From an uncultured bacterium (lineage in GTDB: Bacteria > Desulfobacterota_D > UBA1144 > Nemesobacterales > UBA2774): 64,000 nt of DNA. Where the stretch lies: the NCBI GenBank assembly GCA_963705505.1, contig CAVPJU010000003.1:224001-288000 (forward strand), given 5' to 3'. Shown here one piece after another: positions 46,251-49,107 of this stretch (position 1 is the stretch's first letter; each line of letters opens with the position of its first letter). The notes beneath the pieces were generated by a model. The model was not told the origin of the DNA, made no database searches, and worked only from the letters and a program-made list of their open reading frames with translations. A program made the translations under genes and the position numbers.

Positions 46251-47138
46251 ATGAAAAAATCTCTTCTGACGCTACTATATATCTCAGGATTACTTTTCAT
46301 CCTGCCGTTATCGGCTTTTTCAGCAACTACAACCGATTCAAATCCCCCTGATGAACAACCGGCGGAATTATCGGCGCAGAAGAGCAAAATCCTTTCAGTC
46401 GAGGTAACGGGCTCAAACCTCGGGCTTATACTGCTGGGGACGCTCACAAGCGGTAACGTCTCGAAAGCAATGATAAAAAACCCCGTCACGGGGGAGCTCG
46501 GATCGTATGCCCCCGGAGACAGACTCGACCTCGTCCATTCCGAGACAGTAAAGATAGTCCAGATTTCCAATTGTGTCGTTCTCCTGGAGAGATCCGGGAA
46601 CTTCGAGACGATGGAGTGTCAGAATAAAATGCCTACTGTTGTTTTTAACGGCCCTTCCGTTTTAGCAAAATACAGGATCACGCTTCCCGGAGACGGCAGC
46701 AGCAGGTTCATCTTCTCGGATGACTTCACTACGGATTACGATAAGGATATCTTGAGCGTAAGCGAAAAACACGGGGTGGACCCTTACCTCGTGAAGGCCG
46801 TAATAAAGACCGAATCGAATTTCGACCCGAATGCCGTGTCGCCTAAAAACGCGCAGGGGATTATGCAGCTCATACCCGAGACCGCAACCGATTACGGAGT
46901 GAGCGACCCCTTCGACGCTAAAGAGAATATGGAAGGAGGGGTGCATTACTTAAAAGACCTCCTCGAATATTTCAATGGCGACATGAGCCTCTCTCTCGCA
47001 GCGTACAATGCGGGGAAGGGTGCGGTCATAAAGAACGGCTTCTCGATCCCGCCCTATCCCGAGACGACGGATTATATCGCCAAGGTGCTCGGATACTACA
47101 AACTTCTCAAAGCAAAAAACTACGCTCTGAAAAAGTAA
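46251..47138 (+). CDS. Secreted SLT-family lytic transglycosylase with an N-terminal GspC/PilP-like domain
   Basis: Signal peptide; SLT motifs LVKAVIKTESNF, AQGIMQLIP, LAAYNAG, ET..Y..KV. Confidence 0.88.
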   Translation: MKKSLLTLLYISGLLFILPLSAFSATTTDSNPPDEQPAELSAQKSKILSVEVTGSNLGLILLGTLTSGNVSKAMIKNPVTGELGSYAPGDRLDLVHSETVKIVQISNCVVLLERSGNFETMECQNKMPTVVFNGPSVLAKYRITLPGDGSSRFIFSDDFTTDYDKDILSVSEKHGVDPYLVKAVIKTESNFDPNAVSPKNAQGIMQLIPETATDYGVSDPFDAKENMEGGVHYLKDLLEYFNGDMSLSLAAYNAGKGAVIKNGFSIPPYPETTDYIAKVLGYYKLLKAKNYALKK

Positions 47139-47331: not shown

Positions 47332-47405
47332 GGGCCCATAGCTCAGTTGGTTAGAGCGGCGGACTCATAATCCGTTGGTCCCTGGTTCGAGTCCGGGTGG
47401 GCCCA
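47332..47405 (+). tRNA. tRNA with CAT anticodon, most likely tRNA-Ile2 (lysidine type); CCA not encoded
   Basis: GGGCCCA/TGGGCCC acceptor stem; D arm AGCTCAGTTGGTTAGAGC; anticodon arm GCGGA-CTCATAA-TCCGT; T arm GGTTCGAGTCC. It lacks the fMet C1:A72 mismatch and the GGG/CCC anticodon stem. Confidence 0.93.
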
Positions 47406-48716: not shown

Positions 48717-49107
48717 AGAAGCAAGTGAGCCGGGCAATCGCTGGTCTCTGCACAAAATGCAGGGACTGGAGGAAAGTCCGAACTCCGCAGGGCAGAGCGC
48801 TGGGTAACGCCCAGGTGTCGCGAGACAACGGAAAGTGCCGCAGAAAACAAACCGCCAAAGCCCTTCGATCAAGAAGGGCCGGTAAGGGTGAAAAGGCAGT
48901 GTAAGAGACTACCGCGCCTGCTGGCGACAGCGGGCGGCAAGGTAAACCCCGCTCGGAGAAAGACAAAATAGGGAAGCGCTTTTCTTATTGAAATAAAGGA
49001 CGGCCCGTCCGATGCTTCCGGGTATGTTGCAAGAGGCATTCAGTAATGGATGTCCCAGATGAATGATTGTCCAAGACAGAATTCGGCTTACAGGCTCGCT
49101 TGCTTCT
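48717..49107 (+). ncRNA. rnpB: RNase P RNA (type A)
   Basis: GAGGAAAGTCCGAACTCC, GGAAAGTGCCGCAGAAA, GGTAAACCCC and ACAGAATTCGGCTTA; the terminal P1 helix pairs AGAAGCAAGTGAGCC with GGCTCGCTTGCTTCT. Confidence 0.96.

Follow-up and report, generated by a model that had tools for sequence, protein, structure and literature searches.

Why would a lytic transglycosylase carry a domain of the kind by which type II secretion systems (T2SS) hold their secretin? The question is raised by one gene in a 64,000-nucleotide stretch of Dadabacterial DNA (the window), which a first-pass annotation, made from the letters alone, read as an SLT enzyme fused to a GspC-HR/PilP-like domain and as a tool for cutting the wall where T2SS or type IV pili assemble. 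The gene (46251-47138, plus strand) translates into a 295-residue protein, here P0001, with no internal stop; an in-frame TTG lies one codon 5' of its start at 46251, and a promoter scan found no specific promoter upstream of it on the coding strand. Its 74 homologs are 223 to 304 residues long, and all carry a precomputed PF01464 match. A probable cleavable Sec signal peptide without Cys, judged by eye and hydropathy, occupies about residues 1-25 (46251-46325) and is followed by an acidic, variable spacer and lead-in of low pLDDT (residues 26-53; 46326-46409). The GspC homology-region (HR) beta-sandwich, assigned by homology, profile, and structure superposition, spans residues 54-124 (46410-46622) and contains the stretch that had been singled out, NLGLILLGT...SGNFETM (residues 56-121; 46416-46613). 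A linker of mostly low pLDDT (residues 125-160; 46623-46730) leads to the SLT lytic transglycosylase domain (residues 161-285; 46731-47105; PF01464, E 1e-26).

The SLT domain had been described as intact, and so it proves: P0001 scores 93.2 bits against PF01464 (cut-off, 21.3) and has the catalytic motifs ES at E188-S189 (E188, 46812-46814), GIMQL at residues 203-207 (46857-46871), and AYNAG at residues 251-255 (47001-47015), all on the plus strand. The same three motifs are intact in 50 of 50 fusion copies. The modeled domain has the lysozyme-like fold, with Z scores of 10.8 to 13.8 against LtgA, MltF, MltC, MltD, Slt70, and MltE (13.8 for LtgA 5o2n, 13.6 for MltC, and 11.5 for Slt70); the EtgA structure 8urn was included in the structure comparison. 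Across 10 genomes of one genus, its dN/dS is 0.053. The domain is predicted to cut glycan strands to 1,6-anhydro products.

The assignment of the N-terminal domain needed testing, since P0001 matches PF11356 (T2SSC) with 17.6 bits (E 0.0036), under the cut-off of 27. Two relatives score above it (P0078, 39.7 bits; P0080, 32.8 bits), and T2SSC is matched by 21 of 30 family members, with no other Pfam family at E ≤ 0.01; PF16537 (GspB) has no match in P0001 or in the 30 members, and PF04351 (PilP) is matched by none of the 30. When residues 41-128 were searched against the 8793 ORFs of the source genome (G000; 2.88 Mb, 93.6% complete), GspC was the sole significant paralog (E 3.5e-12), and that genome's PilP was not matched. 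A profile of 30 fusion HRs matches a profile of 36 GspC HRs at 99.8% (E 5.8e-30), and the sole PDB sequence match of the fusion-HR profile is a GspC (7oio_A, E 0.0023). A GspC profile (A3) gave weak matches only against the PDB. A single-domain phmmer search of the PDB, with a PDZ protein as its best match (E 0.4), was rejected as not meaningful.

Structure agrees with this assignment. A first full-length model of P0001 was poor (pLDDT 56), yet it matched 3oss_C, the HR of ETEC GspC (E 1.3e-3, with no match at E ≤ 0.001). The model used here, built from a more diverse alignment, has a mean pLDDT of 80, a pTM of 0.53, and an inter-domain linker with pLDDT below 50. Its HR is a six-stranded beta-sandwich that superposes on 3OSS with Z 11.4 and an rmsd of 1.3 Å over 65 of 65 residues; Foldseek gives a TM score of 0.88 on the target (E 1.1e-3). 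PilP structures match the HR model at Z 7.3-8.7, below GspC-HR, and the GspB structure 4wfw at Z 6.3, the fold being common to all HR domains. The first Cys of P0001 is residue 108, so there is no lipoprotein Cys; C108 and C123, invariant in fusion HRs and common to Dadabacterial GspC, probably form a disulfide. These results confirm that the domain is a paralog of the GspC HR encoded in the same genome and does not come from PilP or GspB. The first-pass reading of a GspC-HR-type domain fused to SLT is thus upheld by the T2SSC matches, the paralogy, and the superposition on 3oss_C, and the fold comparison with GspC-HR and PilP to which it had pointed returns an HR beta-sandwich. Of its double label, the GspC part stands, specifically, and the PilP part does not.

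A normal gspC coexists with the fusion gene. It encodes P0077 (200.5 bits against NF041515, cut-off 150) and heads a gspC-D-E-F-G cluster, with minor pseudopilin genes through gspK, on contig C6; among the scanned ORFs of that cluster (G000:C6:722926-730180), no gspL or gspM was recognized. The whole of P0001 scores 14.7 bits against the same NF041515 model. Of the 120 class genomes, 93 have HR matches; 91 distinct HR-bearing ORFs were taken from these, of which 50 pair the HR with SLT, 39 pair it with PDZ and are GspC, and 2 have neither partner. The copy from G013, one with neither, is interrupted by undetermined bases, and an SLT frame lies just downstream. In G016, at the usual thiD-linked site, an HR is followed by a degenerate, probably inactive SLT remnant (L058:3911-4744); this genome also has a separate close SLT (E 9.6e-42). 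In the fetched loci, a PDZ or gspD match accompanies none of the 50 fusions.

How the two domains came together can be read from the N-termini. A profile built from the N-termini of GspCs only matches four fusions from family f2 (L043, L074, L039, and L037) along both the membrane anchor and the pre-HR motif, which is of the GspC type Y..I...NIF, at E values of 7.9e-15 to 2e-7. These four relatives have a full GspC N-terminus in place of the signal peptide at residues 1-25. A fifth fusion is matched over the start of the anchor only, and P0001, with neither anchor nor pre-HR motif, is not matched. As four relatives retain the whole GspC N-terminus, comparison of the sequences identifies the gene as a duplicate of gspC in which SLT has taken the place of PDZ, and the series of forms traces the shortening of the N-terminus in most lineages. 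The signal peptide of the shortened copies is presumably cleaved.

An HR tree of 92 domains, with near-identical f1 copies thinned to 10 and with 82 columns, few for that many rows, puts the Dadabacterial GspCs in one group (99/96). The fusion HRs join Dadabacterial GspC against 15 outside GspCs (96/86), which had been picked as outgroup because the fusion profile matched them. Two long branches of fusion HRs lie outside the main fusion set, and a tree with all fusions in one clade is not rejected (p-AU 0.24). Fusion HRs are no closer to the GspC of their own genome (identity, 0.328) than to the GspCs of others (0.324). This lack of own-genome bias and the single GspC group led us to reject repeated, recent duplication of gspC within individual genomes. 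The simplest placing of the duplication would be before the families split. Over 28 genomes, fusion HRs have drifted apart faster than GspC HRs (mean identity, 0.40 versus 0.52).

Whether this HR still binds a secretin is a separate matter. Within the same 10 genomes, the HR has a dN/dS of 0.115 and the inter-domain linker one of 0.130, compared with 0.375 in the spacer (residues 26-46), which indicates that the HR is under purifying selection. HR strands 1-3 are reported to bind the N0 domain, with Ala133 and Val141 of ETEC GspC fully buried against GspD N0, and Arg at the equivalent Vibrio positions to abolish HR-N0 binding (PMC3169554). By the aligned superposition ranges and the 2lnv alignment, Ala133 and Val141 probably correspond to L65 and M74 of P0001. 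All of 23 diverse fusion copies have a hydrophobic residue at 65 and at 74, and T64, K76, and N77 hardly vary in either the fusion or GspC. Elsewhere on the strands that face N0, 74% of GspCs but 13% of fusions have a hydrophobic residue at position 72, and the Gly of GspC at position 85 is Thr or Ser in the fusion; these two changes, the faster drift of the fusion HR, and its lack of own-genome bias count against continued secretin binding. Hydrophobic gains at positions 109 and 118 are specific to the fusion.

The polar change at 72 and the gains at 109 and 118 are what might be expected had the HR been exapted and its secretin binding lost, leaving a housekeeping periplasmic lytic transglycosylase in which the HR regulates the enzyme internally or docks elsewhere, for instance on an AsmA-like protein. 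The linker would fit as well: by eye, 48 of 50 copies conserve a short motif around L138-I143 in it. The hydrophobic residues at 65 and 74 could pack against the linker or another partner instead of N0. However, the model shows no confident inter-domain packing, and the N0-facing positions 65, 74, and 76 have the same character in the fusion as in GspC. We consider such an exaptation unlikely, though it deserves to be kept in sight. The motif around L138-I143, which may stand in structurally for the GspC pre-HR motif, does not occur in L039 or L043, which are among the copies that retain that pre-HR motif.

Genomic context bears on the same choice. As the first-pass annotation had remarked, there is no adjacent gsp or pil operon: neither kind of gene is among the identified neighbors in the window, which are thiD, a ChsH2-type OB-fold gene, a CT398-like gene, and an RNase H gene, with a tRNA (CAT anticodon; 47332-47405) and the RNase P RNA (48722-49106) downstream. 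Nor is there one among the loci listed across families, with flanks of 1.5 to 4 kb. In the source genome, the gsp operon is on contig C6, the pil operon is on C1, and the fusion gene is on C3. thiD lies upstream of the fusion in many families; downstream are the tRNA and CT398-like genes in f1 and an AsmA-like gene (PF05170, E 0.00038, under the cut-off) elsewhere, namely, in f2, f4, f5, f7, and f8 loci. The missing gsp linkage and the AsmA-like neighbor would suit an exapted HR, but the latter adjacency is broken in f1, the source genome included. The AsmA-like gene of the source genome is split into two ORFs on a contig other than that of the fusion (G000:C6:21571-25318). Beside gspC itself, directly upstream and on the same strand, is a gene for a PBP4-type D-Ala-D-Ala carboxypeptidase (PF02113; L001:18259-19701), possibly another wall-loosening link to T2SS.

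The fusion is verified in 50 genomes from seven of the eight families of one Dadabacteria order. Intact copies are found in f1 (31 of 33 genomes, with one more high-scoring match besides), f2 (13 of 15, plus the interrupted copy), f3 (1 of 2), f4 (1 of 5), f5 (1 of 1), f7 (2 of 2), and f8 (1 of 37). No copy was found in f6 (0 of 6), where a GspC-type HR match is also missing, and none in f9 of the other order, whose 19 genomes give neither an HR nor a secretin match. The six f6 genomes (G024-G029) each have one short secretin (frames of 456 to 517 residues) and no GspC-type HR or PilP match. The fusion was also not found in G089, G019, and G020 (each 99% complete), in G018 (80%), or in any of 36 genomes of genus g26, of which 35 have a secretin and a GspC-length HR match. 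As most of these relatives keep GspC and a secretin, the enzyme would be accessory and dispensable. That T2SS persists without the fusion would also be in keeping with an exapted HR, whereas the failure to find the fusion in lineages without GspC speaks against one.

Distribution further helps to tell which secretin is addressed. The source genome has pilMNOPQ on contig C1, complete with pilP and with a PilQ bearing AMIN and N0-like domains; its pilM reads as two consecutive ORFs of 151 and 193 residues (G000:C1:153106-154154), possibly through a frameshift or sequencing error. PilP (PF04351) is also an HR-type beta-sandwich that binds secretin N0, and the common fold would allow the fusion to dock on PilQ, or on both secretins, and open the wall for pili. 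Fusion losses partly parallel PilP loss, as g26, G089, and G019 are without both. Genus g3, however, has the fusion in 10 of 10 genomes and PilP found in none of the 10 (79 to 98% complete), with one secretin match in 9 of 10; in the four genomes checked, this secretin is the one of roughly 900 residues that adjoins the gspC match. Keeping the fusion where no PilP is found favors GspD over PilQ as the probable partner. Conversely, G020 (99% complete) and G018 have PilP and not the fusion. The fusion HR derives from GspC and, unlike PilP, comes without a PF04351 match or lipoprotein Cys, the real pilP sitting within pilMNOPQ on another contig. We regard docking on PilQ as very unlikely indeed, and the type IV pilus half of the first-pass proposal is disfavored by the g3 genomes.

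GspD may have a wall link of its own. In Dadabacteria, it often carries an N-terminal LysM domain (PF01476) before N0, as in L001:14194-16917 (G000:C6), and one relative's GspD (L064) has six; the N-terminus of f1 GspD resembles a membrane anchor rather than a cleaved signal. In a set of 37 GspD proteins, 24 of 27 genomes with an intact fusion show LysM (one of them in a frameshifted frame upstream), against 0 of 8 genomes that have no fusion; the genome of the degenerate copy has no LysM, and G004, with no fusion found, has one. Co-loss of fusion and LysM is not significant (three independent pairs; sign test, p 0.5; G004 excluded as unknown and G016 scored as a loss), and genome reduction confounds it. 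On three pairs, the association is a lead, not evidence. The LysM itself may be an alternative wall link, which weighs against a wall-opening role for the fusion. GspA, GspB, and two GspS pilotin families were not found in the source genome (93.6% complete).

Beyond the 120 genomes of the class, two wider searches were made. A scan of one genome per species with the single protein, which finds close relatives only, gave 30 loci, 27 of them full-length, with titles of Dadabacteria, Thermodesulfobacteriota or Thermodesulfobacteriales, Deltaproteobacteria, and uncultured organisms, plus two of Spirochaetia that are 71% identical and probably mislabeled. The Acidobacteriota (Terriglobia) and gammaproteobacterial matches in that scan cover the SLT part only. 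The source names of the homologs suggest Dadabacteria/Thermodesulfobacteriota. Searching 1.84 billion representatives by profile brought up 59 matches: 10 complete HR+SLT fusions, one partial fusion, and otherwise GspC-like proteins, fragments, or repeat noise. Six of the fusions were placed in the HR tree, where they group with the order's copies. Across the class genomes, the species scan, and the representatives, no fusion was found outside this Dadabacteria order. The domain architecture is already on record in automatic annotation, PF11356 with PF01464 in 5 of the 74 homologs, and an Atlas cluster of 85 members has T2SSC in 18%. In the literature searched, with most subscription journals outside it, there is no description of an HR-SLT fusion, which the first-pass annotation likewise did not know as described, and none of a dedicated wall-cutting enzyme for type II secretion. 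The fusion is real, conserved, and apparently undescribed.

This distribution, which follows T2SS, and the cleavable-looking signal peptide of most copies would also be expected of a self-addressed T2SS cargo that digests foreign peptidoglycan, its HR being a tag that engages the secretin gate. Dadabacteria have been proposed to degrade microbial peptidoglycan, and their terrestrial clades are reported to have T2SS (bioRxiv 10.1101/2020.06.22.165886), which fits such a cargo. The marine streamlined clades, however, are said in the same preprint to degrade peptidoglycan yet to be without T2SS, and the genomes of f9, of about 1 Mb and presumably those very clades, have no fusion. Moreover, the GspC-type membrane anchor of the four f2 relatives fits a periplasmic role. 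A secreted cargo is, in our judgment, distinctly improbable.

Several known proteins resemble the fusion in part. EtgA is the space-making lytic transglycosylase of the type III secretion system. VirB1 of type IV secretion, likewise of the SLT family, is proposed to make way through the wall for its trans-envelope machine (PMC7777525). According to PMC5285504, type III and type IV secretion have dedicated wall-cutting enzymes, whereas type IVa pili do not; a title in the references of PMC9239104 has type VI secretion recruiting a housekeeping lytic transglycosylase. Such enzymes lie within the gene cluster of their machine, or one of its subunits recruits them, whereas the fusion is encoded apart, has a duplicated machine-subunit domain for its address, and would serve a T2SS. 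With GspC of the deltaproteobacterial type (NF041515; PF11356; 3OSS chain C), it shares the HR fold, the Cys pair, an IKN motif, an extra loop, and, in four relatives, the anchor, but it has SLT for PDZ, a signal peptide in most copies, and a place outside the gsp operon. GspB/OutB (PF16537; 4WFW), acting with GspA/ExeA, is also a second HR protein that binds N0, links secretin to peptidoglycan, and aids assembly, with the HR on N0 and the C-terminus on the wall (PMC9239104). Its wall contact, however, is a noncatalytic tail or GspA, whereas the fusion carries an enzyme, and the fusion HR matches GspC (Z 11.4) better than it does GspB (Z 6.3). By the features tested, the fusion falls outside GspC, GspB, PilP, and cluster-encoded enzymes of the VirB1/EtgA type. 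By analogy, its work would resemble that of a space-making transglycosylase dedicated to a machine, and also that of GspB.

How the wall, with its mesh of about 2 nm, is crossed by a secretin of 15 subunits is an open question in the field. The mesh is reported to block GspD multimers, which pass when it is loosened; secretins are known to get through with GspAB or with a pilotin, and systems that have neither are expected to use some other way (PMC10329019). We judge the chances slightly better than even that the fusion is an enzyme dedicated to opening the wall for type II secretion and that it docks on the secretin GspD. Its gene is an ancient gspC duplicate that exchanged PDZ for SLT, and in most lineages the anchored N-terminus was later reduced to a probable signal peptide. 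The protein would be exported to the periplasm, where the HR would dock on GspD N0 (N0-N1 span about residues 214-378 of P0076) and place the SLT domain at the peptidoglycan, and local cutting of glycan strands would let the secretin cross or sit in the wall. The enzyme would probably act at an early stage of assembly before ceding N0 to GspC; this hand-over follows the precedent of GspB, in which one N0 site is occupied at different times by two HR proteins (PMC9239104). As an accessory factor, it would have been lost several times in small-genome lineages that retain T2SS. Somewhat short of even are the chances of the fuller version, in which this wall-opener docks on GspD N0 before GspC, works with the LysM of the secretin, and replaces the GspAB and pilotin routes.

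At that strength, the fusion is a single-chain candidate for opening the wall to a secretin, with a structurally understood domain as its address label, and so binding and activity could be tested on purified fragments even though the hosts are uncultured. For the Dadabacteria that carry it, it offers a clear case of a machine subunit that was duplicated and refitted with an enzyme, with intermediate forms surviving in relatives.
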